Positions 15,066-59,930 of a stretch of DNA of 59,930 nucleotides are shown here, piece after piece. How positions within the stretch are numbered: position 1 is the first letter of the stretch; the number at the start of each line of letters is the position of its first letter. The stretch lies in IMG/VR virus record IMGVR_UViG_3300038656_000077, one strand, 5' to 3'. Source of the stretch: an uncultured virus (IMG/VR IMGVR_UViG_3300038656_000077). Its lineage: Duplodnaviria; Heunggongvirae; Uroviricota; Caudoviricetes. The position numbers were made by a program, and so were the translations under genes. The notes beneath the pieces are model-generated. The model worked only from the letters and a program-made list of their open reading frames with translations, searched no databases and had not been told where the DNA came from.

Positions 15066-15282
15066 ATGTTTGCTAACGTTTAGTATATGATTTCGGGCTT
15101 TAGTTGAGCCAAATATTAACAGATAAAAACAAAATTATGAATAATAATAAAAAACCTAAAAAAATAGAAAACTACAACTTAAATAACTTTGTTTTTGATG
15201 CTACAAAAACCTCAAGAATACCCCTTACCTAATAATACATAAAGAAAAGACTAGCTTAGTCTACACTAGAGACAAGCCCCTT

Positions 15283-27210: not shown

Positions 27211-28035
27211 ATGGATTTTCAAACATTAGGAGATTGGTGCAAATGGTTAGAGAAAAACTTTTCTAACGAACAAATGATACCTACATTACCTGTTATTATC
27301 AGATTAGATGGTAATAACTTTCACAATTGGACAAAAGGATTAGAAAGACCTTTTGATAAAAAACTAACCGAATTAATGACTGAAACTACAAAGTTTTTAG
27401 TTAAAGAAACAAATGCAGTTATTGGTTACACGCAAAGCGATGAAATTACTTTGATTCTTTATTCAAGTGATAGGAAAAGGGCTATTTATAATGCTGGTAA
27501 AAAGCAAAAAATAGTTTCTAAACTTACTGCAAAATGTGTTAACTTTTTTAATGAAAAGAGAAAAGAATTATTACCCACACACGACAAAGTAGCTGTGTTT
27601 GATTGTAGAATTTACCAAACACCGACATTACACGATGCTTGTGTACAATTATTGTGGCGTGAAAATGATGCTACAAAAAATAGCGTTTCGATGTTAGCTC
27701 AAAGTTTATTCTCACACAAGCAACTTCAAAAGTTAAACGGTAGTGAAATGCAAGATAAAATGATGATTGAAAAACAAGTCAATTGGAACGATTTAGAAAC
27801 AAAACTAAAACGTGGAACTTATGTTAAACGTTTAAAAACATCCAAACCTTTTTCTACAAATGAATTGAAAGATTTACCACCAATGCATCAAGCACATAAA
27901 AATCCAAATTTAACAATTGAAAGGTCAACTATTAAAGAAATTGAATATCCTGTTTTTAGCAAAATTGTAAACAAAGAAGATGTTATATTTTTTGGTGCTG
28001 AACCGATTTTGAATGTTTATACCGAAGTCGTTTAA
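27211..28035 (+). CDS. thg1: tRNA(His) guanylyltransferase Thg1-like protein
   Basis: IIRLDGNNFH, YTQSDEITL, FDCR, WRENDATKNS. Confidence 0.92.
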   Translation: MDFQTLGDWCKWLEKNFSNEQMIPTLPVIIRLDGNNFHNWTKGLERPFDKKLTELMTETTKFLVKETNAVIGYTQSDEITLILYSSDRKRAIYNAGKKQKIVSKLTAKCVNFFNEKRKELLPTHDKVAVFDCRIYQTPTLHDACVQLLWRENDATKNSVSMLAQSLFSHKQLQKLNGSEMQDKMMIEKQVNWNDLETKLKRGTYVKRLKTSKPFSTNELKDLPPMHQAHKNPNLTIERSTIKEIEYPVFSKIVNKEDVIFFGAEPILNVYTEVV

Positions 28036-28640: not shown

Positions 28641-29060
28641 TAAAGCTTTAAGCTATTATTAACAATAACTTACTTAGATTAATCGTATCTTTGTACAAGC
28701 GGAAGTTGAAAAGCTATTAGAGTAGGTAAATTAAAAAACGAAATATTATGATAACGATTAAAAAATATAAGTGCAATCACCAATTTAGAACATATTGGAA
28801 TGTACACGCAAAAAGAGAACAATACGACTTTAGAATAGCTGAATGCACTTGCATTTATATTTTTGGTTTATTGATATGGAAAAGTTTAAAAAGCATTGAG
28901 AACTAAGCATTATTTATATACCGTGTTACCCGCCGTTTTCTTATCGAAATGTTAAATTTTAGGTAAATACCAAAAATAAATTGACTTTAGCTTGCGAGTA
29001 ATTAGGTAAATGCCTAAATTAGTACTGTAGCAATAAAGCTATAACAAATACTTAGAAATT

Positions 29061-29639
29061 ATGAAAAATACAGCGACTATTAGTATTAACAATGACAACG
29101 TAAGAATCAATGGTGAAAACATTAATATGCATGAAACTGGACTTGACGGGCTATATTCTATCGAAGAAATAAAAGAATATATCCTTGAAGAAGATGGAAT
29201 TGTTGAAGTTGAAGAAATTGAGTTTGTTGATGGAAATGACGATACGGTAAATGCATTATTAAAGTTGAAGGAATTAGCCGAAAATGGGGATATCTATCAC
29301 GATGTATATACAGGAGAAGAATGGTTAGGTATTAATGGAGAAGGAAAAATATTATTAGGTCGTGGCGATACAACCGATTGGGGGAAATATTCAGGCGAAC
29401 CAGAAAATACAGAAGAATGGTTAAATGAAAAAAACTGGAAGCCACTACAAGAAGATATTAAGATAGAAACAGTTTCAATCCCAGAAGATGGACAACCAGG
29501 ATTAGTTGACAAACTATGTTTTGTACAAAAAAACACCGAAGTTTCAAGCCCTGTCAATGATTGCGTTTCTTGGATGGATGAATTTGAAGTGTTAAATAAT
29601 AATGGCGAGTACTTTGCAGTAGCAAAAAGATTATACTAA
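29061..29639 (+). CDS. Acidic hypothetical protein (cassette-borne)
   Basis: 192 aa within cassette 28925-29837. Confidence 0.7.
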   Translation: MKNTATISINNDNVRINGENINMHETGLDGLYSIEEIKEYILEEDGIVEVEEIEFVDGNDDTVNALLKLKELAENGDIYHDVYTGEEWLGINGEGKILLGRGDTTDWGKYSGEPENTEEWLNEKNWKPLQEDIKIETVSIPEDGQPGLVDKLCFVQKNTEVSSPVNDCVSWMDEFEVLNNNGEYFAVAKRLY

Positions 29640-29836
29640 TGCATAATCTTAATAATTTCAAAATGACCATCCAAGAAGTAAAAAAAGAACTCGGATTATC
29701 TGACAAAGATATAGCCGAGTTCTTCCAATACGCAAGCGGTAATAGTTATGCTACAAGCGCACGAAAAGAAAAGTTAGACCACGGAATTATAAAAATGTTT
29801 CTAAAGTGTAAGGATCATTTCTCAAATGGCGGGTAA
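29639..29836 (+). CDS. Small HTH protein (cassette-borne)
   Basis: IQEVKKELGLSDKDIAEFF; stop codon lies in GGTAAC. Confidence 0.65.
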   Translation: MHNLNNFKMTIQEVKKELGLSDKDIAEFFQYASGNSYATSARKEKLDHGIIKMFLKCKDHFSNGG

Positions 29837-29867
29837 CAACGGATATGAATAACAAAACAAAACAAAA

Positions 29868-30229
29868 ATGAAATTAATACAACCAAGAGGTGTACAAGAC
29901 ATAGCAGACTACCTAAAAGAAAACAAATTAAAACTTGAAGATGTAGAAAAATACAAAAGTTTAGAATACCAATATAAAAAATGTGAAGGTGGTGGTAGTT
30001 ATGTTAGAGCATCATTTTATATTATAGAAGGAAATTTTTATACTAATTGGGACTGTTAAAACTGTAAATTATGATAACTAATGTTTGGGATGAAATACGA
30101 TTAATTAGGTGTATAAAGAAAGGTCTTTGGTTAAAAACAAAACATAGAGGGTGGATAAGACCTGCATTATATAATGAATATCTATCATACGCCTTTGATT
30201 GTAAAATTTTAAAGGAAGAACGATGGTAG
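29868..30229 (+). CDS. Two small ORFs (29868-30059, 30071-30229) inside an attC-like hairpin interior
   Basis: Between arms 29835-29852 and 30236-30253. Confidence 0.55.
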
Positions 30230-30408
30230 TGTTTTTATTATTTATATACCGTTCGATGTATAAGGAACGGCTTGTAAATATCTTAAATTATATCTAACAG
30301 AAGTCTTAAAATCCTAGTTAAGTAGGTGCGGTTAGTCGACTGTTAGGGGGCTTTTAAAATAAATATATTGAAAAAGGCGGTCTATAAACATTTAAAAAAT
30401 TTAACATT

Positions 30409-31660
30409 ATGAATTATCAAACAAAAGTCGTACTTAGAAAAACATTGTACGAGTTTAGAGGTGCAGAAAGAGCCAAACAAGATGAAATGGTATCTTTAAT
30501 CGAGCAAAGAATAAAACAGCATCAAAACGCTTTAAAAACTACTGGTACAGGTTATGCGGATCATTTTGTACAAGCAGGAAAAATATTTTTGAGAATAGCT
30601 AAAAAAGATTAACACTTCATTAACAAAACAAAACAATTATATTCATTATCTTTGTGTCAACCGCAATAGAAACAACCAAATTAGTAAAATTATGATAAAC
30701 ACAGGAACAATACACAGCATCAACGGAATAGAAGTGAACATGGGAGGAGGTATGGCTAGAGGTTTATATAACCTATCAAGAGATAATCATATAACTCTTT
30801 GGTTTGACGAAGGAACTTTAGACCATCTTATGAGTCTATCGGACGAGAAGTTAGAACAGGAATTTTTAAAAATGGTGAGGTAAGATGAAATTTGAAAACA
30901 CACTTGTAGATTTAGGGGCCACAAAAAATAGAGATATATTTGGCTTAGAAGAGTACATTATTCAAACCAAAACAGGGCTATTGTATGTTACTCTTATGAA
31001 CGATAACCATCTTTGCTGTAATTTTATCGGTAGCGAGAAAGAGGCTAAAAAGAAATTCGGTCACTGGAAGCAAAACAGGATAGTGGAAACAGAACAAGAC
31101 ATTATCAACCACATAGAAAGATTAAAGCTATAATGGATAAAGCAATACAAATAAGAAAGGAAGGGGAGTATACATACGAATCTCTACAAAACAAATCTTT
31201 ATTTAGAGTTGGCAGAGGAGACAAAAAGACAAAATGGGTTGCTTTTAAGTTTTTGCAGGGTATATTCTTAGCCGACACAGATAAGTTTAAACAGATTATT
31301 AACAGTAAGTTACAACATGAAGCATTATCTTTGTGTTCTAAAAAATAGAAGATGGACAGGAAAAAATTAAAGAAGGCAGATTTTATAAGGTTTAGCGATA
31401 ATCCGAGCCTCAACTTTAGTATAATTAAAATGCTAAAGCAGAATTGGTCGGATATATTAAAAAATCCAGATGTGATGAATACAGACAGTTTCACTAAAGA
31501 AGAATTAGAGTCGTTAGCTTGTATGAACATGGAGATATTTACAAAGACTGCCGTAGCAACAGATAATAGAATACATTACAAAGAAGATCCTCTAACAATA
31601 GTTTTAGCTAGTATGTTAGGTAAAGTAAAGTCAGAACTTAAAAGCTTGATGAGAGAGTAA
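30409..31660 (+). CDS. Five small hypothetical genes (30409-30612, 30692-30883, 30885-31133, 31133-31348, 31352-31660)
   Basis: Coupled + strand ORFs. Confidence 0.6.
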
Positions 31661-31678
31661 CAGAAAATTAAAAATAGA

Positions 31679-31927
31679 ATGAGTAAAGAAGCAGAAGAGT
31701 TTTTTAAACAAAAGACAATAGAAAACGCTGAAACACCAAGGATGAAAAAATTTCTTGCATTGGTGAATAGAGAAGCAGAAGGAAAGATTTTGCAAGAATA
31801 TGCCGAACAGCAATTAATTTTACATGGTCTTGTGGAAGCGTTTCACTGCATGGCTGCTAATAGCCAGGATGGTTTTACTGAAGAAAAATGTAAAGAACAG
31901 TGTAAAATGTGTAAAAGTGGGCAATGA
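31679..31927 (+). CDS. Cassette-type small protein with Cys tail
   Basis: QQLILHGLV over a degenerate arm. Confidence 0.6.
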   Translation: MSKEAEEFFKQKTIENAETPRMKKFLALVNREAEGKILQEYAEQQLILHGLVEAFHCMAANSQDGFTEEKCKEQCKMCKSGQ

Positions 31928-32100
31928 CATGTTTGCTAACAACGTTTTGTATATGAAAAGTAGCGTATAGACAAGTAGAAATTAACGAGTAAAACAGAAG
32001 TAATATAAACAAGCAAAGACCAACGTATTAAGCACTTAAAAGCTATTTTTTATATATGTTGTTGTGTGTATTGAGGTGGTTTAGCAAAAACTTAAATAAA

Positions 32101-32400
32101 ATGGGATATAGAGGAAAATTAATGGTAGAACATACAGGAATAAAACTACCAAAAGAGATTGCAGAAAAGTATAAAGACGATTACCACATAGAACAGCTTG
32201 AAAATGGTGATTATGTAGTAAACATATCTTCTAAGTTTGAGACAAAAGGACATTGGGATATATTACTAGACCTTAAAGAATTATTAAAAGATAATAATTT
32301 TGGCATTTACGGTGTAGTTTTATGGGAAGATGGAAGGATTGATAGACATAATTTTTCTACTGGTGAGCAAGAAACATTTAAACCAAAAGACGATTACTAG
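32101..32400 (+). CDS. Cassette-borne hypothetical protein
   Basis: Bounded by GTTGTGTGTATTG / CATTACATACAAC. Confidence 0.7.
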   Translation: MGYRGKLMVEHTGIKLPKEIAEKYKDDYHIEQLENGDYVVNISSKFETKGHWDILLDLKELLKDNNFGIYGVVLWEDGRIDRHNFSTGEQETFKPKDDY

Positions 32401-32550
32401 CATTACATACAACGTTTTGTATATGATTTGTAGGCATAGACAAGCAAGAACTTTGGACTAAAAACTTACTTAAATAGATAAAAAAAGAACATTAAAATAT
32501 TAATCAACAACCTATAAATTATATACGTTGTTATAAAACGTTTTTTAGGG

Positions 32551-33146
32551 ATGGCAAAAAAAGAGATTACAAAATGGGAACAGGTTTATCAATTACCTAT
32601 AAAATATGATGATATGAAATACTGTTGGTCAAAAAATGGTACAATGACACTAATGTTTGATGAAGTAGTATCTGAGGAAGATAGACAGATGATTGTAAAA
32701 GCTTTAAATGGTGAAACAGAATTAAAGATGGAAGGACTGACTTTTGATGGATGCGATTTCTTACTTGACGGAACTTACATTTTTTGTGTGCGTGGTTGGG
32801 GTAACTTAACTGGAATTGGTGCATTAAACTTACCCGAAGAAAAAGCCTTGAAGATACAAGACGAATTTATTAACCACGTGCATAGAGCGTTGGCAAAAAA
32901 TACAGAAACTAAGCAATGCACTATACCAAGTGTAGTGCGTTTTCTAACGATGAACTTGAAAACATGATGAATACTTGGTTTGACCACTACCAAGCAAACG
33001 GTGAAAGCCATTATAGTGACACTCCTGATTTTAGGATTAGAGAAATATATTGGGATAAGGTGGTTGATAGAGTTATTGAAGATGTAAATACTGAAATGAC
33101 AGATAAAGAAGTAGAACAATTTTGTGATAGACTTGCTGATTTGTAG
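32551..33146 (+). pseudogene. Cassette ORF split by an inferred 7-bp deletion at the GTT site
   Basis: ORFs 32551-32967 and 32916-33146 fuse if GTTGTGT is restored at ~32931. Confidence 0.55.
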
Positions 33147-33198
33147 CATTACACACAACGCTCGTGGGTATGGCATTTTTATAAAACGGAGCGTAAAA

Positions 33199-33231
33199 CC
33201 CACACATCTTTTTAGTGTGTGGGTAGTTCAC
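33199..33231 (+). mobile_element. IS200/IS605-family right-end fragment
   Basis: Hairpin plus GGGTAGTTCAC; identical to the reverse complement of 55189-55221. Confidence 0.75.
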
Positions 33232-33253
33232 ATAGTATTAGGCACAGTACGGT

Positions 33254-33610
33254 ATGGAAAGTTACAAATTTAAAATTATAGATATGGGAAATTTACCTAA
33301 AGAAGAAAAACCAAAGATAAAAAAATACGAAATATGGATTGGATTTGTAGGTGCTTGGGGACAAGGCGACCACGATTCTGTAAAGCCACAAAAACTTGGT
33401 GAAGTGGAGGCAACTTCTTTTAAAATAGCCTGTTGTATATACGAACACGAAAACGCTGTAAAGCACTTGAAAGAAAGAATGAAACGAGGTGACACTTATA
33501 TTGAAGATGCTTGGTTTGGACATTGGGGATATAACCCTAAAGACAATAGTACAATGCACTTGGGTAGATATTTTGAAACTGAAAAAGATGCTTGGACGAC
33601 CTTTAAGTAG
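33254..33610 (+). CDS. Cassette-borne hypothetical protein
   Basis: 118 aa, ends just before the AAC arm at 33621. Confidence 0.7.
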   Translation: MESYKFKIIDMGNLPKEEKPKIKKYEIWIGFVGAWGQGDHDSVKPQKLGEVEATSFKIACCIYEHENAVKHLKERMKRGDTYIEDAWFGHWGYNPKDNSTMHLGRYFETEKDAWTTFK

Positions 33611-33677
33611 TATTGTCCACAACGTACCGCAGATATGACAAGTTGCGGGATTAAATACTAACTAAAATAAATAAACA

Positions 33678-33986
33678 ATGAATTTACAAGAAGAATTTTA
33701 TTACAGAATAGATAATGATAATGGTTACGACAACAAAAAATTAGGTGACGATTTAATAGCGATTGCAAAAAATCACTTATCTAAGCAATTTGTTATGTCT
33801 GGTGTATTTGTTATATCTGGTGTTAGGCTTTCGTTGCCTGATGAAGATGAAATAAACTCAATGCAATTAGAAATGGATTGCCCTACACCAAATGAAGAAG
33901 AATATACTACATCTGGTTTTAAAAGCGGTGTTAGATGGTTAAAAAACACTATTGAAAGACAGATGTTAAAAGGCAATGAAGCCTAA
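33678..33986 (+). CDS. Cassette ORF spanning the GTT arm
   Basis: Stop in CCTAAC. Confidence 0.65.
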   Translation: MNLQEEFYYRIDNDNGYDNKKLGDDLIAIAKNHLSKQFVMSGVFVISGVRLSLPDEDEINSMQLEMDCPTPNEEEYTTSGFKSGVRWLKNTIERQMLKGNEA

Positions 33987-34011
33987 CGAATAGTATAAAA
34001 ATAGTAGCGAT

Positions 34012-34209
34012 ATGGAAGATAAAATATTTGATATAGTAACAGACCTAATTAGGGATGATATAAGTAAAAATGAAGCAATAGATAAGCTATTGATTTTATA
34101 CAGTGTTAGCAAACGTCATTTAATCGAAGAAATTTTAGATGATGTAAACAGTTGTCACGGAGAATATGCTAGCGAAAAAGTACAAGCTTATCTTGATGAT
34201 GGTTGTTAA
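34012..34209 (+). CDS. Cassette ORF spanning the GTT arm
   Basis: Stop in GTTAAC. Confidence 0.65.
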   Translation: MEDKIFDIVTDLIRDDISKNEAIDKLLILYSVSKRHLIEEILDDVNSCHGEYASEKVQAYLDDGC

Positions 34210-34356
34210 CGGTTTGAATATGAAACGTTTTAATACAGAAGTTATTTAAATGTAATAAAGTTACAACATTTATATGTATTTTTATTTGGAATGCTGAATA
34301 AAATGTTTTATATTTGGAATGCTGAATAAAATGTTTTATATTTTTTGTTATAAATA

Positions 34357-34432
34357 GGTGGGTTCGTCTATCTGGATAGGACAACTAGCTAACAGCACAT
34401 GTAGAAATGAGGTTCGAGACCCATACCCACCA
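34357..34432 (+). tRNA. Degenerate tRNA-like gene forming a whole cassette
   Basis: Acceptor GGTGGGT/ACCCACC-A, D arm GTC..GAC with TGG, T loop GGTTCGAG; anticodon arm irregular. Confidence 0.6.
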
Positions 34433-34579
34433 CTTATTTATAACGTTTAGTATAATAAACGGCTTGCAAATAAGATGCTACCCTCACGAATGCGGATAGC
34501 ATATAAATAATAACAAAACACCGATAAAGCAATAAACCGCTTTTATTTTTATACGGTGTTAGCAAATGTAATTTACGAT

Positions 34580-34918
34580 ATGAATTTACCTTATGTTCTA
34601 GCTCACTTCATAGGCGACTTTCTGTTACAAAATGATTGGCAAGCAGTTGGAAAGAAGAAAAGTAGTTTAATATGCACTATGCACGTTTTGCTCTATATGA
34701 CACCATTTTTACTAACTGAATTAAGTTGGTTACAATTAGGATTAATAGCTGTACAACATTGGTTACAAGACCGAAGCTCATTTGTAGGATGGTGGTGTAA
34801 AACTATGGGTTCGTTTCAAACTGAATTAAAGCAAAACGGTTTGCCTTGGGGTCATTTTATAGTAGACCAAGTAATGCACTTTATTTGGATGTGGTTAGTA
34901 GTAAATTATTGTTGCTAA
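34580..34918 (+). CDS. DUF3307-like membrane protein (cassette)
   Basis: AHFIGDFLLQ...H...HWLQD...DQVMH; stop in GCTAAC. Confidence 0.8.
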   Translation: MNLPYVLAHFIGDFLLQNDWQAVGKKKSSLICTMHVLLYMTPFLLTELSWLQLGLIAVQHWLQDRSSFVGWWCKTMGSFQTELKQNGLPWGHFIVDQVMHFIWMWLVVNYCC

Positions 34919-34956
34919 CGCATTGTATATGAATAGTTAATTTAAAAATAATAGAT

Positions 34957-35205
34957 ATGGAAGAAGTATTAATAAATTTTTTAATAAGCCTAAACGATAA
35001 GGGCTTAATAAATAACCACGATTTTGATTACGAAAAAGTTGCACGGGCTTTTCCAAATAAAGCCGAGAATAAGCAATTAATTATAGCCAATGTTGTAGGG
35101 CAAAGCGAACAGTTAAAATGCGTTTGGTGTGGTAATGACGAAAGCAAGGATATACTTCCTCAACTTTGTAATGAGTGTTTTAAAAAAGGATGTAAAGCAT
35201 TTTAA
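34957..35205 (+). CDS. Cassette ORF spanning the GTT arm, Zn-finger tail
   Basis: KQLIIANVVGQSEQL, CxxC..CxxC. Confidence 0.65.
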   Translation: MEEVLINFLISLNDKGLINNHDFDYEKVARAFPNKAENKQLIIANVVGQSEQLKCVWCGNDESKDILPQLCNECFKKGCKAF

Positions 35206-35335
35206 TTACCTACAACGGCTATTGTATGAATAGTAGCCGTAAAAAGCGAGAAAAATTGAATTATAAACTAAATTAATTAATACACAATAGCCTTTAAAAA
35301 GACCACATAACAGGCTATTATTTATACAAATTATT

Positions 35336-35485
35336 ATGGAAGTAGAAAAGCAATGGATAGTAAATGTTTATGAACTATTATTACTCTTAAAAGACGGAAC
35401 TTATAGAATTGGTAAAAGCTCTAATCTTTATGGATTTGACTTAATAGATAAAGAAAAGGCGTTGGCTCTTATTAATGCCACATAA
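35336..35485 (+). CDS. 49-aa cassette ORF
   Basis: Stop in CATAAC. Confidence 0.5.
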   Translation: MEVEKQWIVNVYELLLLLKDGTYRIGKSSNLYGFDLIDKEKALALINAT

Positions 35486-35535
35486 CGTTCGACAGATATG
35501 GCGTGTTGCCTCAACAACTTAAATTAATACACGAA

Positions 35536-35829
35536 ATGAATTTAATTAAGCGATTATTTAGCAAAAAGAAAAATAAGCAATGCGATATATCTGGTGTTGT
35601 AGGTAGTTCTTCTCCTAAAAAAGAACAGACTTATATGCATGTTGAAGCAGGTACAAACAGAACTTATTTTACTAACGAACCACCACATATAAAAAATGGT
35701 GTGAAGAACAAATCCAAAGAAGTAAAAACCGTTATAAATGATGACTTACCTACAACGAATGGTGCTATGGTGCGTTACTTTTCGCAATGCATTATAGCAC
35801 GTGTTGTACACTGTATGGCGGTTAAATAG
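35536..35829 (+). CDS. Cassette ORF spanning the GTT arm (reads on through the next site)
   Basis: KQCDISGVVGSS. Confidence 0.5.
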   Translation: MNLIKRLFSKKKNKQCDISGVVGSSSPKKEQTYMHVEAGTNRTYFTNEPPHIKNGVKNKSKEVKTVINDDLPTTNGAMVRYFSQCIIARVVHCMAVK

Positions 35830-35916
35830 AAATGAACTTTAAAATGAAAAACGAAATGAGTAATAATATTTTTTTGAGCGGTGGCAAATGCCCCAAAGGG
35901 CAAATTACATACAGTT

Positions 35917-36637
35917 ATGAAACCATTAGGGAATAAGAATTACGGAAGCATACCACATTTATCTAATAGTAAATTAGATTCTGGTGACCATTTTGTAAAC
36001 CTTTGTAAACCATGGACAAGAAAGGATATTGACCGAAAAGAAACGAGATAAGCAAGATGAAATATTTGTGTTTGAAAAATATGATGGATCAAATGTTGGA
36101 ATTGGTAAAATAGATAATAAAATAATTGCTGTAACTCGAAGCGGTTATGTGGCAAATACAAGCCCTTATAAACAACATCATTTATTTAGTGATTAGGTTT
36201 ATAAAAATATAATGACTTGGATGGACTTATTGAAAAATGGTGAAAGAATTACAGGTGAGTGGTTAGCACAAGCACACGGAATTAAATATAATATTCACGA
36301 AAAGTTACAACCTATTGTTTTCTTTGACCACTTTAACGAAAATAACAAAAGAAGTAATTTTGATGTATTAGATAATTTTTATAAAAAATACGAAATACAA
36401 TTACCAAGGCTTTTACATAGAGGTGATGCAAAAAGTGTTGAAGATTTAAAAACTGAACTTAATAAAAAAACCTACGGAATAACACCTGAAGGAAAACCCG
36501 AAGGAATGGTTTATAGAGTTGAACGAAAAGGCAAAGTAGATTTTCTTGCTAAATGGGTAAGAAGTGATTTTGAAGCAGGTAAATATATTATTGATAAAGA
36601 GGAACACGAATTGATTTGGAACACGCAAACTAGCTAA
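35917..36637 (+). pseudogene. RNA ligase (Rnl2-like nucleotidyltransferase), disrupted
   Basis: MKPLGNKNYGSIPHL...FEKYDGSNVGI...GEWL...PEGMVYRVE...AKWV; frameshift(s) near 36000-36035 and TAG at ~36194. Confidence 0.75.
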
Positions 36638-36769
36638 AAAAGGAAGGAAAAAAAGAGTGTATTATGGACAAATACAAAAAGACCTTTGAATTAAGCACAA
36701 ACTAAGCACTTGCAGGTAACGGAATGCGTGTATGAGTAGTGCTTGGAATAATAAATAAACTTAACAAAA

Positions 36770-37003
36770 ATGGAAGAAATAATAAAATACCTTGAAGAAA
36801 TTAAAAAACATCAAATGCAAACAGTACAGTTGGCAAGAAGTACAGAAGTTTACAAACTTGCAGATAAAGCACTTGCCAAAGCATTACTTATACACGGTGT
36901 TGTAAAATCGTTTTATTGCCAATGCGATGAGCCTTATGAACAGATATTGCCACATAGCAACACACCCTACTGTGGGGAATGTTCAAAAAACATTAAGCAA
37001 TAA
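36770..37003 (+). CDS. Cassette ORF spanning the GTT arm, Zn-finger tail
   Basis: KALLIHGVVKSF, CxC..CxxC. Confidence 0.65.
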   Translation: MEEIIKYLEEIKKHQMQTVQLARSTEVYKLADKALAKALLIHGVVKSFYCQCDEPYEQILPHSNTPYCGECSKNIKQ

Positions 37004-37112
37004 TATGTTTTACAACAACGGATATGAATAACAAAACAAAACAGTAATACAAGTAATAACATTTTGATCCGTGCATAGCTTTGTAAGCTCTAACATCAAA
37101 TTTGCAGAAACA

Positions 37113-37312: not shown

Positions 37313-37881
37313 TTGAGGTACAAATATACTAGAGTTGGGGCATCAACTCATGGAGGTAAACGCAGAGATAAGTGTAAATTAAAAATTGCAAAGCTTTATC
37401 AAAAGATAACTAATCAAAGAGATTTCTTTTTACATAATTGCTCAACACAATTAGTCAACAACTTTGATTGCATATTTATAGAAGATTTAGGGGTTAAAGA
37501 TATGTTAGAAAGCAAGTTAATGTCAAAACAGATTTCCGATGCCAGTTGGAGTAAGTTTGTTAATATGTTGACTTACAAAGCTGATTGGTACGGTAAAACG
37601 GTTCACAAAATTGACCGTTATTATGCTTCTTCAAAGACTTGTTCTTGTTGTGGACACATCAACAAAGAACTAACCCTAAAAGACCGTGAATGGACTTGTA
37701 ACGGTTGTGGAACTTTGTTAAACAGAGATGTAAATGCAGCCATAAATATTAAATCGTTTGCTTTAAAAAATTATTTGAGTGGGGAACACACTCTTAAAAA
37801 TCAGGACGAACTGTTGACGTTAGTCAAAGTGCTGACTCCTGAAGCCCATCCCATCGCCTCTGGCGTGGGTGGGTAGTTCAC
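37313..37881 (+). mobile_element. tnpB: 5'-truncated tnpB (IS200/IS605 family) with omega-RNA / right end
   Basis: IEDL (RuvC-II), SSKTCSCCG..CNGCG, RDVNAAINI (RuvC-III); RuvC-I and N-terminus absent; ends GGGTAGTTCAC. Confidence 0.85.
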
Positions 37882-54204: not shown

Positions 54205-54580
54205 AATGCTAACACTGGTTATAGTGCATTTGCGAAAAGCAAACGACACCATACCCTTAACGTTAGGCTTTAATATTTTTGCCAATCATTGTTATCTAAG
54301 TCATAATCTGCCAACATCATACCATTACCTGTTGGGTTGTGACTTTCTATTACGACCTTTGTTTTTTCTACACCTCTTACAATACCTGTGTATCTACCAA
54401 AAGGGCTGTCCATATAAACCTTGTCAAAAAGACTAAAGCTAACAAAGTGTATATCACATTGCTTTTTATCGCTTAATTTCTTACCTTTTTCCATTTTATT
54501 TAGTTTATTAATTATTCAAAGTTTCTGTTTATTTACACGCAACTACTCATACACAATTACGTTACCTACAAGTGCTAAGT
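54205..54580 (-). mobile_element. Cassette cluster II (attC-like sites 54211-54264, 54441-54563)
   Basis: AAC..GTT hairpins; ORF 54270-54494 spans one arm. Confidence 0.7.
54270..54494 (-). CDS. Cassette ORF spanning the GTT arm
   Basis: KQCDIHFVSFSL. Confidence 0.65.
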   Translation of the reverse strand: MEKGKKLSDKKQCDIHFVSFSLFDKVYMDSPFGRYTGIVRGVEKTKVVIESHNPTGNGMMLADYDLDNNDWQKY

Positions 54581-59004: not shown

Positions 59005-59104
59005 ATTAAATTTCGTTTTTTAATTTACCGCACCAGATGGCTAACACGGTATAAAAGCCATTGAAAATAACGGCTCTTATACTAATCGTTAGGCACAATT
59101 TGAA

Positions 59105-59395
59105 CTACTCACCAATATAGTGGGTTTCAAAATCATGACCATCATCAACATTTTTCGTTTTATTTTCATCAAGATTAACTATTTCTCGTAAGTTTTTTAA
59201 TTTTACATCACCAATCTCCTTTTCGTGCATTTCTATATTTATTCCACCAGAGCCATCACCATCAATTTGTATCGGTAATAATCTGTTAGCACCAACATCA
59301 CCACAATATTGTATTTTTCTTAGTGCGATTAAGAAGTCTTTTAAATCTTCATCAGAGATTGCTGTAATCCGTAAGTCTATAAATTTTCTTTCCAT
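59105..59395 (-). CDS. Cassette-borne hypothetical protein
   Basis: DGDGSG motif; bounded by complementary ends. Confidence 0.7.
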   Translation of the reverse strand: MERKFIDLRITAISDEDLKDFLIALRKIQYCGDVGANRLLPIQIDGDGSGGINIEMHEKEIGDVKLKNLREIVNLDENKTKNVDDGHDFETHYIGE

Positions 59396-59538
59396 AATAT
59401 AAGTGTGCCTAACAATGGCTAAAGTTAATAGCCTCAATAGGTCTTGTTATAGTTTAATGATTAGTGATTAACGGCTACTAACCTTAGCCTAAACGTTAGG
59501 CACAATTAAAAAAGATGCCTAACAATGTATAAACCCAA

Positions 59539-59685: not shown

Positions 59686-59719
59686 ATTCTTAAAAATTTA
59701 CTGTGTTTATATTCGTTCG

Positions 59720-59929
59720 TTAACTACAATGCTTGAGATAGTTATCTAACAACCCTTTTATATTATCGGCACCAACAGGGTTTGCAGAGTGTACAAATAT
59801 TTTAGGCAATTTATTTTTATTGTCCATACAATAATCTACTAACCATTTAGCACAGTCCATACCTGTTTTCTCTTGGTAATTTTGACCACGCCACTCTTGA
59901 AACTTCTTACTTTCATCATAATTATTCCA
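59720..59929 (-). CDS. Cyclic-phosphate-processing receiver-like (cREC) protein, C-terminal part
   Basis: KTGMDCAKWLVDYC...VHSANPVGADNI; stop in GTTAAC. Confidence 0.65.
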   Translation of the reverse strand, partial: WNNYDESKKFQEWRGQNYQEKTGMDCAKWLVDYCMDNKNKLPKIFVHSANPVGADNIKGLLDNYLKHCS

Positions 59930-59930
59930 A

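Follow-up and report, generated by a model that had tools for sequence, protein, structure and literature searches.

A probable recombinase-less gene-cassette array in a phage genome, related to an integron-like system of Flavobacteriia and their phages

In T4-type phages, PeSL elements are repeats of a promoter and a hairpin that work via homologous recombination; the pdif modules of Acinetobacter plasmids are Xer-dependent and have 28-bp duplex sites in alternating orientation, and the CTX phage, also Xer-dependent, uses a single-strand attP. In integrons, the integrase IntI carries a specific insertion that is needed for attC binding. For Bacteroidetes, the available portion of the IntegronFinder 2.0 report (PMC9024848) gives a single complete integron, from Salinibacter, besides In0 elements detected previously. 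Lytic phages with clusters of attC sites have been published before; the available sections of that study (Qi et al. 2023, PMC9892861) describe 2-4 sites per phage, taken as bacterial-type attC and assayed with IntI1, and list no Cellulophaga or Flavobacterium phage. One of these, P12002L_attC1 of a Polaribacter phage, belongs to the site family described below, and according to these sections IntI1, a non-cognate enzyme, did not recombine it. Our literature search found no description of the integron-like system presented here.

We analyzed the window, i.e., the whole stretch of 59,930 nucleotides, in which AAC...GTT sites were found between small + strand genes from 28.9 to 37.0 kb. This region is probably a mobile gene-cassette array of an integron-like system of Flavobacteriia and their phages, and we read the window as carrying a recombinase-less, partly degenerate array of that system. 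The bases 3' of a GTT were complementary to those 5' of the next AAC, and the preliminary description, which had claimed that this complementarity extends beyond the triplet, was borne out: the 11 neighbour GTT...AAC pairs tested had Watson-Crick pairing at 76 of 121 positions outside the triplet, a total reached by 3 of 200,000 permutations. A tiny pair near 30251/30268 was excluded because its arms overlap. True ends were far more complementary than shuffled ones, non-cognate pairs giving a mean of 3.5/11 (n = 110), and complementarity of at least 8/11 was seen in 6 of the 11 pairs vs. 0.32% of 29,256 background pairs. Two pairs showed no complementarity (32530/33159 and 35803/36720), and a strict canonical stem was found in only 3 of the 11. 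Wobbles in the nine complementary pairs were G.T or T.G in 10 cases and A.C or C.A in none, as read on the + strand. The four complementary end pairs quoted earlier were all in place: 28925/29837 had 10 perfect bp and 29-nt arms that were 83% complementary, 33822/33987 had 9 perfect bp followed by an indel and 6 further bp, 34558/34919 was complementary at 16/19 positions, and 36899/37016 had 9 bp. Stop codons also fell in or just before the AAC, as had been described, lying within TAAC for the ORFs ending at 29836, 33986, 34209, 34918, and 35485, and 11-15 nt 5' of AAC for those ending at 31927, 32400, 33146, 33610, 35205, and 37003.

To score individual sites, we used the covariance model R1, built from 59 sites that all came from loci other than the window; it detected seven sites in the array (38-71 bits) and five elsewhere in the window. 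Therefore, of the about 13 sites first proposed, seven are strongly supported, and the rest comprise long intervals, half-sites, and short fused sites. All the features that follow are on the + strand. The first boundary (28910-28938) is an R half-site, TATATAC-CGT-GTT plus arm; two genes separate it from its pairing partner, 29824-29852, with which it has a 7/7 stem, a G.T at position 11, and 3/3 pairs after that. The first cargo (28925-29837; ORFs 29061-29639 and 29639-29836) has canonical arms, with 10/11 Watson-Crick pairs and one G.T, and is followed by the L half-site at 29824-29852, arm-AAC-AACGGATATGAA, whose interior type recurs at 37008-37031. The interval from 29837 to about 30251, formerly taken as a 420-bp site, contains two ORFs and does not represent a site. 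An attC-like site of about 120 nt (31937-32067; 70.6 bits, E 1.5e-11 with R1) precedes a cargo at 32061-32413 (ORF up to 32400; 8/11 Watson-Crick), and another attC-like site lies at 32407-32536 (60.9 bits with R1). The cargo at 33822-33987, the C-terminal part of ORF 33678-33986, was 90% identical to Cellulophaga phage Ingeline; the attC-like site after it (33981-34111; 52.1 bits with R1) holds the start of ORF 34012 in its loop, and the C-terminal part of this ORF (34012-34209) forms a short cargo at 34105-34210 (8/11 plus 2 wobbles). A canonical cassette at 34347-34444 (7/7, G.T, 3/3) bears a 68-nt tRNA-like cargo without an ORF, for which neither ARAGORN nor Rfam gave a call. In the attC-like site at 34438-34564 (37.9 bits with R1), the 3' 59 nt were 93% identical to phage phi46:3, and identity stopped at GTTA. 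Next come a cargo for a DUF3307 membrane protein (34558-34919), a cargo formed by the Cys-rich C-terminal part of ORF 34957-35205 (35092-35216; 6/11), and an attC-like site with a degenerate R' triplet (35210-35339; 53.4 bits), 84% identical to a phage phi19:3 site from AAC onward. The site at 35480-35602 (55.1 bits), with the start of ORF 35536 in its loop, forms an end-to-end hairpin on the + strand, and is followed by a canonical cargo within ORF 35536-35829 (35596-35756; 9/11 plus G.T). The compact site of about 60 bp noticed at 35750-35809 was confirmed as a 60-nt element (38.4 bits with R1; end-to-end hairpin of -10.6 kcal/mol). The last cargo, the Cys-rich C-terminal part of ORF 36770-37003 (36899-37016; 7/11), leads to the terminal L half-site at 37008-37031, after which neither a recombinase nor a terminal attI-like site was found; a C-terminal fragment of TnpB (IS605 OrfB/Cas12f-like; 37313-37876) lies where relatives have the recombinase. 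Several sites of the array are degenerate.

Cellulophaga and Polaribacter phages also carry this site type, as do Flavobacteriia chromosomes and more than 100 viral contigs. Its fixed stem consists of GTT, 7 covarying bp, a near-invariant G.T wobble, and 3 bp. A motif-free census yielded 579 distinct GTT...AAC pairs that were perfect over 10 bp; at position 11, 208 of them had G.T with 3/3 next pairs, 58 had A.C, and 10 had a Watson-Crick pair, the A.C cases being copies on the other strand. The site interiors showed compensatory changes in 16/25 pairs (21 sequences) and 16/21 pairs (59 sequences), the G.U at AAC-G/T-GTT was invariant (59/59 sequences), and site lengths fell into discrete classes of about 40, 80, 115-125, and 180 nt. 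Single-sequence DNA folds were weak: at most 3 of 200 shuffles equaled those of 34438-34564 on both strands, of 32407-32536 on the - strand, and of 35750-35809 on the + strand, and the remaining 8 of 12 were ordinary vs. 200 shuffles. Of 6 window sites, 4 folded more stably as the + strand.

Arrays in related loci ended at a conserved terminal site adjoining a 267-aa Xer/IntI-like tyrosine recombinase with domains PF13495 and PF00589. Its best NCBIfam matches, XerA at 169 bits and integron integrase at 153 bits, did not reach the cut-offs, and its best PDB matches were XerA 4a8e (1e-34) and IntI4 2a3v (5e-26). About 48 aa are missing at the place of the IntI-specific insertion, and the system is therefore not a canonical integron. 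The proposed search for an IntI-like integrase led to this enzyme of the Xer/IntI group, which ends the arrays of other phages and of hosts but lacks the insertion. The window, as already stated in the preliminary description, yielded no tyrosine recombinase with PHROGs on the 35 larger ORFs or with tblastn using 40 recombinases (best E 0.19). The terminal site, YAAC-TA-N1-3-TATAT, lay 32-52 nt before the recombinase start in 41 of 49 distinct loci, and close variants were found in the remaining 8; the window had 4 motif matches, where chance would give 5.3. The absence of both the recombinase and the terminal site from these 59.9 kb weighs against the integron-like reading. Full flanks were present in 34 viral loci, where 128 elements lay upstream of the recombinase in its own orientation and 2 lay elsewhere; in 19 bacterial loci, 19 elements were upstream in that orientation and 43 downstream on the opposite strand. 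Therefore, read 5' to 3', the G.T strand always leads to the recombinase. Related loci with the same sites and a recombinase point to an overlooked integron-type system of gene shuffling.

Fixed gene order in relatives, sought as a refutation, was absent: phages phi46:3, phi19:3, phi18:3, and phi13:2 had common flanks at 96-98%, and their arrays were different and re-ordered. Having also outlasted the comparison with shuffled ends, the integron-type reading is supported. A 371-bp block that extends from AAC to AACGG was common to phages phi19:3 and phi13:2 (99.2%) and occupied different positions in their arrays. In Polaribacter phages Freya_1, _2, _6, and _10, the flanks were 99.8-100% identical; just before the recombinase, on its upstream side, the genomes differed by 0 to 4,921 bp, and the junctions were at AAC|ACCCC. 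Metagenome contigs from 4 runs joined 34207 to 37014 with only AAC in common, the contig sides being 22-45 nt. Among viral contig blocks containing cargo, 4 of 8 ran exactly from AAC to AAC, and 28 of 99 block starts were at -4 to -2 of AAC. Of the breakpoints predicted at AA|C or G|TT, the AAC box was the recurrent crossover, but not G|TT on the gene strand. Contrary to the prediction of an AAC-to-AAC unit, some homology blocks broke at GTT or elsewhere: the window/Ingeline block started at GTT and ended about 10 nt past AAC, those of the window with phi46:3 and L029 ended at GTTA and at an R-like box, respectively, and one phi19:3/phi13:2 block began in a 5' UTR.

Such UTR boundaries would suit a rather unlikely explanation, in which the repeats are regulatory modules of early genes (promoter/5' UTR, terminator, mRNA-processing stems) shuffled without a dedicated recombinase, by the homologous recombination between repeated modules proposed for PeSL elements of T4-type phages. 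Start codons lie 25-60 nt downstream of L boxes, 5' UTR stretches are conserved between phages, the folding strand of phages is the mRNA strand, G.U wobbles are typical of RNA, and the PHROGs scan found a UvsX-like recombinase encoded in the window. However, polarity tracks the position of the recombinase and not gene direction, with ORFs antisense to the G.T strand in 62 of 86 bacterial cargos and on it in 5; with 208 G.T vs. 10 Watson-Crick pairs, the wobbles are conserved and not just tolerated; some junctions have only the AAC triplet in common, and the conserved terminal site adjoins a recombinase.

It is quite unlikely that this recombinase is a phage enzyme for lysogeny or dimer resolution, with the AAC-bearing terminal site as attP or a dif-like site and cassettes captured passively, variable DNA being gained as the phage integrates into host arrays and is excised at alternative sites. 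In the available text of Bartlau et al. (PMC8776804), who described the Freya and Ingeline genomes, it is taken as a lysogeny integrase and a sign of temperate life, and homologous recombinases with arrays also occur in host chromosomes. Ingeline has a second, larger integrase adjoining a repressor-like gene, which also favors this view. Against it, both ends of the Freya indels are at cassette sites, no lysogeny genes were found among the window ORFs scanned with PHROGs, and ORFs in 205 viral cargos were on the G.T strand in 139 and opposite in 2, the reverse of the bacterial orientation, which argues against simple pick-up of host cassettes. Finally, invertible segments (inverton/shufflon) or small terminal-inverted-repeat transposons in a palindromic target are highly improbable: R and L boxes carry one motif in opposite orientations and alternate along the array, and ORFs read across R boxes as with shufflon-type C-terminal swapping, but cargo orientation is essentially fixed in viral contigs, the inner arms vary between cassettes and covary within one, blocks travel as AAC-to-AAC units, and visual inspection of selected sequences revealed no target duplication.

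In the integron-like cassette array, the unit extends from one AAC box to the next, with the order site interior, GTT box, 14-nt arm, cargo, and complementary arm ending in AAC. The interior is an imperfect hairpin of 40-180 nt, whose loop in phages often contains a 5' UTR and start codon. We propose that, when the single strand is circular or looped, the two cassette arms would pair and, with the interior hairpin, may give one long bipartite hairpin, comprising an R-box helix (GTT/AAC, 7 free bp, conserved G.T, 3 bp), an asymmetric internal loop, and an L-box helix, the layout of an integron attC site. The small recombinase would bind the folded G.T-bearing strand and exchange strands at AA|C, between two sites or with the terminal attI-like site beside its gene, leading to cassette insertion, excision, or re-ordering. 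Since the window has no recombinase, no terminal site, and decayed sites, its assembly and any present rearrangement would depend on an enzyme in trans, possibly from elsewhere in the phage, a co-infecting phage, or the host.

When compared with known systems, this array resembles PeSL in having repeated intergenic modules around small accessory genes in a lytic-phage hyperplastic region, with shuffled gene sets; unlike PeSL, its ends are cassette-specific and covarying, and its sites are linked to a tyrosine recombinase. An Xer-family enzyme is common to the Xer-dependent systems, CTX sharing a folded single-strand substrate and pdif the genes as site-bounded modules, but the sites here, unlike pdif, are long hairpins of one polarity in arrays beside their own recombinase. 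According to the available sections of Qi et al. (PMC9892861), CALINs of virulent phages are, like the window, attC-type clusters with no integrase and no sign of lysogeny, and the P12002L_attC1 oligonucleotide has the same central loop as a compact site at 2687-2735 of L045, with covarying flanks; unlike here, no dedicated phage recombinase, terminal site, or polarity difference is reported in those sections. Classical and sedentary chromosomal integrons (IntI, attI, and attC arrays, e.g., Vibrio VCRs), as generally established and as described in the available parts of PMC8618304 and PMC9024848, share the AAC...GTT boxes, the bipartite R-box/L-box hairpin with asymmetric internal loop and variable loop, cassette-specific complementarity between cassette ends, discrete site-length classes, a stop codon in or beside the AAC box, and a recombinase beside a simple terminal site at the array end toward which the folded strand runs; their genes run antisense to the strand that folds, which also holds for the bacterial arrays here. 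No classical extrahelical bases were identified in the sites here. Unlike integrons, the recombinase is 267 aa long, about 48 aa short at the IntI insertion, and scores 153 vs. the 265-bit NCBIfam integron-integrase cut-off, the 14-bp R-box helix contains conserved G.T wobbles, phage genes are on the folded strand, so that crossover on the gene strand falls at AAC instead of G|TT, and the phage recombinase is the last gene of the array.

Reading through 28.6-37.4 kb of the window, we found two half-motifs in alternation. In the L box, an arm specific to each cassette ended in YAAC and was followed by G, a few bases, and a GTATATGA-like stretch; the R box consisted of a TTATATAC-like stretch, two to five bases, T-GTT-R, and then a cassette-specific arm; one motif underlay both, R being approximately the reverse complement of L. 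The preliminary description had proposed that the two ends of a cassette are complementary beyond the triplets, and the four end pairs it quoted were all present at their positions. For 11 adjacent GTT...AAC pairs (a tiny pair near 30251/30268 was excluded because its arms overlap), 76 of 121 positions beyond the triplets were Watson-Crick, a total reached by 3 of 200,000 permutations of the partners, so the complementarity exceeded that of shuffled cassette ends. The 110 non-cognate combinations averaged 3.5/11 Watson-Crick, and complementarity of at least 8/11 was found in 6 of the 11 pairs versus 0.32% of the 29,256 background pairs taken from the rest of the window. Two of the 11 pairs of adjacent boxes, 32530/33159 and 35803/36720, lacked complementarity. 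Among the mismatches in the nine complementary pairs there were 10 G.T or T.G and 0 A.C or C.A on the + strand. A strict canonical stem rule was satisfied by only three of the 11 pairs, and relaxed stem criteria gave mainly noise (59 and 55 pairs per strand). In agreement with the earlier claim, stop codons lay within TAAC or 11-15 nt 5' of AAC.

R1, a covariance model built from 59 sites of other loci and none of the window, was run on the window with filters off; its list at E<=10 comprised 59 sites, of which 12 had E<0.01. Seven of the 12 were in the region that holds the array, all on the + strand and with 38-71 bits (31937-32067, 32407-32536, 33981-34111, 34438-34564, 35210-35339, 35480-35602, and 35750-35809); thus, the model recovered part of the approximately 13 sites that had been claimed. 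One more + strand site was at 15071-15197, and four, on the - strand, were found amid - strand genes (54207-54268, 54437-54567, 59039-59094, and 59407-59501). Family sites outside the reported interval (54207-54567, 59039-59501, 59708-59724, and 15071-15197) followed the local gene orientation. The seven model-supported sites fell within 3.9 kb and no recombinase was present in 59.9 kb, which corresponds to a CALIN (at least two close attC sites with no integrase nearby), as judged with R1 and not with the standard attC model. The thermodynamic folds of individual window sites were unconvincing, and the structural case therefore comes from covariation.

A motif-free census of the loci fetched for comparison, which collected GTT...AAC pairs with 10 perfect base pairs and 40-1500 nt apart, gave 579 distinct pairs. 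Position 11 was G.T followed by 3/3 further pairs in 208 of them, A.C in 58, and Watson-Crick in only 10; the 58 A.C pairs were other-strand copies. In 324 instances oriented by G.T, a T.G was found just outside GTT/AAC, and positions 4-10 were free in sequence yet paired, so that here, as in the window pairs, the bases after GTT were complementary to those before AAC. The cargo, i.e., the DNA between the two boxes, was 63-2488 nt long in these instances (median 352), and the distance from AAC to the next GTT fell into classes near 40, 80, 115-125, and 180 nt. The site interiors folded as imperfect hairpins with strong covariation: 16 of 25 predicted pairs showed double compensatory changes in 21 sequences, and 16 of 21 predicted pairs were compensatory in 59 phage and bacterial sequences. 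Moreover, a G.U at AAC-G/T-GTT was observed in 59/59 sequences and a second G.U position in 58/59. Since the complement would carry an A.C mismatch at each wobble, this conservation suggests that the full hairpin is possible on one strand only, hereafter the G.T strand. The predicted site layout is an R-box helix, an asymmetric internal loop (~5 vs 2 nt), an L-box helix, and a variable loop. Integron attC sites are built on this same overall plan, and the corresponding imperfect hairpin (R''..AAC-L''...L'-R' GTT) was found in the consensus structures and in the seven window sites.

The proteins encoded by the cargo were nearly all without a family, the exceptions being a DUF3307 membrane protein and a broken RNA ligase. 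The ligase gene (PF09414; 35881-36637, + strand) was split into three ORFs, and an intact 297-aa homologue with 81% nucleotide identity was found in Flavobacterium psychrophilum phages; at 35992 the window has a 10-nt tandem duplication that was missing in contigs of all four metagenome runs mapped (one per run). Two direct copies of a ~33-nt motif (...GGAATGCTGAATAAAATGTTTTATAT...) were located at 34268-34345 (+), within the long AAC-to-GTT interval 34210-34347. Several ORFs started in a site loop and read through GTT, mostly as a Val codon (33678-33986, 34012-34209, 34957-35205, 35536-35829, and 36770-37003, as well as 3724-4371 of L002, a comparison locus). Such ORFs would encode two-part proteins whose N-terminal piece is variable and derives from the site; the cargo supplies the C-terminal piece, which in several cases was Cys-rich. 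Many phage ORFs likewise began inside the hairpin loop and continued through L' and GTT into the cargo, which explains the R boxes within ORFs.

The window has a G+C content of ~31%, and its genes lie on the + strand between ~6 and 37.9 kb and on the - strand in the rest. ORF annotation showed a large terminase, DNA polymerase, helicases, and thymidylate synthase; a UvsX-like recombinase, a Thg1-like enzyme, and an A1-like DNA transfer protein were also present. Among named phages, Cellulophaga phi4:1 and phi17:2 had the proteins closest to the A1-like one (59% protein identity), and a search of viral contigs with this protein found no relative. Phi4:1 had no array beside its A1-like gene and no R1 match in its first 50 kb. 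The Thg1-like tRNA-His guanylyltransferase gene (27211-28035, +) is just 5' of the array, and its best phage matches were in jumbo phages. Between this gene and the array, a sub-threshold match to the Rfam DUF805b motif was detected (28696-28728, +; 32.5 bits vs 35.6), overlapping TATCTTTG, which we take to resemble the Bacteroidota -7 promoter box. Bacteroidota promoters differ from the sigma-70 type, and this element is possibly the promoter of the array. As previously reported, the window contained no tyrosine recombinase: none was found among its 35 larger ORFs, and tblastn with 40 recombinase sequences gave a best E of 0.19. A pattern scan of the window showed no terminal attI-like site either. 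Directly after the last cassette, at the position where relatives have the recombinase, the window carries a C-terminal fragment of TnpB/IS605 OrfB (37313-37876, +; 187 aa from a TTG start, with OrfB_IS605 and Cas12f-like TNB domains). The last 213 bp (59718-59930) matched two viral contigs at 99% identity, and these contigs were otherwise unrelated to the window and shared nothing else with it; the identity with both began one base from a GTT/AAC box, and these contigs had no recombinase.

The region was also represented in 24 salt-lake metagenome runs, which contained 63-66% of its words. When contigs from four runs were mapped to 26-40 kb of the window, the depth over flanking phage genes was ~43, 64, 55, and 23, and parts of 31.6-35.8 kb reached 3-10 times these values. 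Many joints were observed; one of them, present in all four runs, connected 34207 with 37014 and had AAC alone in common. The contigs had short sides, and hence they support shared, rearranged cassettes weakly. Megablast of the region against phage records showed no close relative and returned three cassette-sized matching pieces. Window 33814-33995 was 90% identical to Cellulophaga phage Ingeline and corresponded to the cargo bounded by 33822/33987; in Ingeline, this cargo was joined to an unrelated N-terminal ORF part, so the C-terminal piece was common to both and the N-terminal piece was not. Window 34503-34561 was 93% identical to phi46:3, the match stopping at GTTA. The third piece was the RNA ligase gene described above. 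Ingeline and phi46:3 had the same boxes, including hairpin cassettes without an ORF; although sites could be seen there by eye, neither Ingeline nor the first 40 kb of phi46:3 gave an R1 match at E<0.01 under default filters. Viral contigs scanned with a 15-base motif mostly had a single match, which is the chance expectation for such a pattern, and about ten loci had several cognate pairs. In one of these, L045, the array terminated at a 267-aa tyrosine recombinase.

Next, we address the units of exchange. A fixed gene order in related phages would have spoken against a cassette array, and we found the opposite: four related Cellulophaga phages had flanks 96-98% identical and different arrays, and a 371-bp block, 99.2% identical and spanning AAC to AACGG, was at different positions in phi19:3 and phi13:2. 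Across 107 loci, 28 of the 99 block starts nearest an L box were at -4 to -2 of AAC, 12 of 69 block ends were at GTT +2 to +4, and none of the 49 starts nearest an R box was within 15 nt of it. Blocks running from AAC to GTT are conserved site interiors; of eight blocks that contained cargo, four ran exactly from AAC to AAC, three had one AAC end, and one had neither. Polaribacter Freya phages gave similar results. Ten co-isolated genomes span 43,978 to 48,920 bp, and in Freya_1, _2, _6, and _10 (loci L291-L296), with flanks 99.8-100% identical, the difference was entirely in small genes between a fixed gene and a small recombinase that shares 37% identity with the L045 type; the length differences, immediately 5' of this recombinase, were 0, 842, and up to 4,921 bp. 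The inserts started right after AAC and ended in AAC, joined to a constant ACCCCTATAAC... leader of the recombinase gene, and Ingeline had a similar leader. These breakpoints indicate that the cassette is AAC, then site interior-GTT-arm-cargo-arm-AAC, and strand exchange would occur in or next to AAC. The earlier expectation of breakpoints at AA|C or G|TT was thus borne out for AAC, where phage blocks and indels begin and end, and not for the G|TT of R', which is not the crossover on the gene strand. Some boundaries did not fit: the window/Ingeline block started at GTT, the window/phi46:3 block and that between the window and comparison locus L029 ended at R-type boxes, and one block began in a 5' UTR, suggesting that recombination also takes place at other conserved stretches.

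The L045 enzyme contained PF13495 and PF00589 domains. It scored 169 bits against the NCBIfam archaeal XerA/integron integrase model, below its cut-off, and 153 bits in two stretches against TIGR02249 (integron integrase), below the cut-off of 265. The closest solved structures were XerA (4a8e, 1e-34) and IntI4 (2a3v, 5e-26); when aligned to the latter (VchIntIA/IntI4), the catalytic motifs matched and 37 residues were opposite 85, indicating that the linked recombinase lacks the IntI-specific insertion. As to a canonical integron integrase, therefore, the window has no tyrosine recombinase and the enzyme linked to the site family has no IntI insertion. Viral contigs yielded 111 homologues of this type, of which 80 loci were retained, and more than 7,500 proteins were related to the L045 enzyme at E<1e-20; in species-representative genomes, homologues were mostly 38-58% identical and were found in Flavobacteriia, Cytophagia, and related groups. 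Of the canonical elements in the 34 viral loci that had full flanks, 128 were upstream of the recombinase and on its strand (36 in the last kilobase), and 2 were elsewhere. Distinct upstream regions carried the terminal site YAAC-TA-N1-3-TATAT 32-52 nt ahead of the recombinase start codon in 41 of 49 cases and close variants of it in the remaining 8. Hence, an integrase with an attI-like site at the array end is present in relatives and absent from the window. A chromosomal example was found in a Gaetbulibacter genome contig (L285, 8885-16451), where at least ten consecutive cassettes of 448-716 bp, extending to the end of the fetched locus, lie beside a 305-aa ORF that is a homologue of the phage recombinase; of about nine site intervals, seven were 116-120 nt, two near 180 nt, and one 825 nt.

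In the 19 bacterial loci, 19 elements were upstream of the recombinase in its orientation and 43 were downstream on the other strand, and in every arrangement the G.T strand ran 5'->3' toward the recombinase. The cargo ORFs themselves were divided by host: in viruses, 139 were on the G.T strand and 2 on the opposite one (205 cargos), and in bacteria, 5 and 62, respectively (86 cargos). Site polarity therefore tracks the recombinase and not the genes, which favors a role at the DNA level over one in the mRNA. A shufflon or inverton was rejected because this orientation is essentially fixed in viral cargo, and none of the 15 metagenome joints listed of 32 changed strand. Introns were discarded upon reading the sequence, as excision of the cargo restores no frame, and IS200/IS605 ends because only the TnpB fragment is nearby. 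A tRNA-like nature was considered in view of a 68-nt cargo, alone in a canonical cassette (34358-34432, +), with acceptor-like ends and a GGTTCGA T-loop-like motif; ARAGORN and Rfam gave no match for this cargo or for the sites, and a tRNA gene was rejected. A CRISPR-like array and pdif-type duplex sites were considered and rejected.

In literature outside subscription journals, phage attC clusters were found only in Qi et al. (2023), and no account of a recombinase-array pairing was found. That article (PMC9892861) describes virulent phages, among them one of Polaribacter, that carry attC clusters and no integrase, and its site family overlaps the one described here: a compact site in the L045 array has the same loop as the P12002L_attC1 oligonucleotide of that work, with covarying flanks. 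In the same work, one family site was predicted by HattCI and was not recombined by IntI1 (PMC9892861). Other reports indicate only one complete Bacteroidetes integron, in Salinibacter (IntegronFinder 2.0; PMC9024848), an IntI insertion not fully conserved in an integron-like subgroup (Smyshlyaev et al. 2021; PMC8138268), and Freya and Ingeline integrases taken as signs of lysogeny (Bartlau et al. 2021; PMC8776804). If our reading is correct, lysogeny should not simply be assumed when a flavophage genome encodes a small integrase.

Collectively, the array proposed in the preliminary description is real and its integron-like reading is supported, with corrections concerning the recombinase, the crossover, and the terminal site. 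The data show the anatomy, the covariation, the linkage to a recombinase, and the breakpoints. We infer that the sites fold as single strands and are cleaved at AA|C, that circular intermediates are formed, and that the array is active in the window phage. The broader reading, to which we give an even chance, is that a second, unrecognised type of integron occurs in Flavobacteriia and in many of their phages, with a compact Xer-like recombinase lacking the IntI insertion, a simple terminal site, and hairpin sites whose G.T wobbles would set strand choice, since the complementary strand with A.C mismatches would fold poorly. The phage version would be reversed, with genes on the folded strand, starting in the hairpin loop, and co-transcribed in the direction of the recombinase gene; lytic and temperate phages would use it to exchange early or anti-defence genes across the community, and that pool would supply the window, an array with no recombinase of its own. 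For gene capture and shuffling, integrons are the textbook device; they are regarded as dependent on the IntI-specific insertion and have been considered nearly absent from Bacteroidota. If true, a related recombinase without this insertion does the integron job in a major marine phylum and its viruses. This would allow a natural comparison of the steps by which Xer-type enzymes came to recognise single-strand hairpins, and it would suggest how hyperplastic small-gene regions arise in phages. The cultured phages Freya of Polaribacter and Ingeline of Cellulophaga, with cassette-number differences at the predicted insertion point, are a tractable test bed. In canonical integrons, crossover is at G|TT and each gene is followed by its attC, whereas in the phage arrays the site travels with the downstream gene and AAC on the folded strand is the position equivalent to the integron crossover. 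The bacterial arrays, whose genes are antisense to the folded strand and whose upstream end carries the recombinase, resemble classical integrons; the phage arrays differ from these in having their genes on the folded strand and the recombinase as the last gene.
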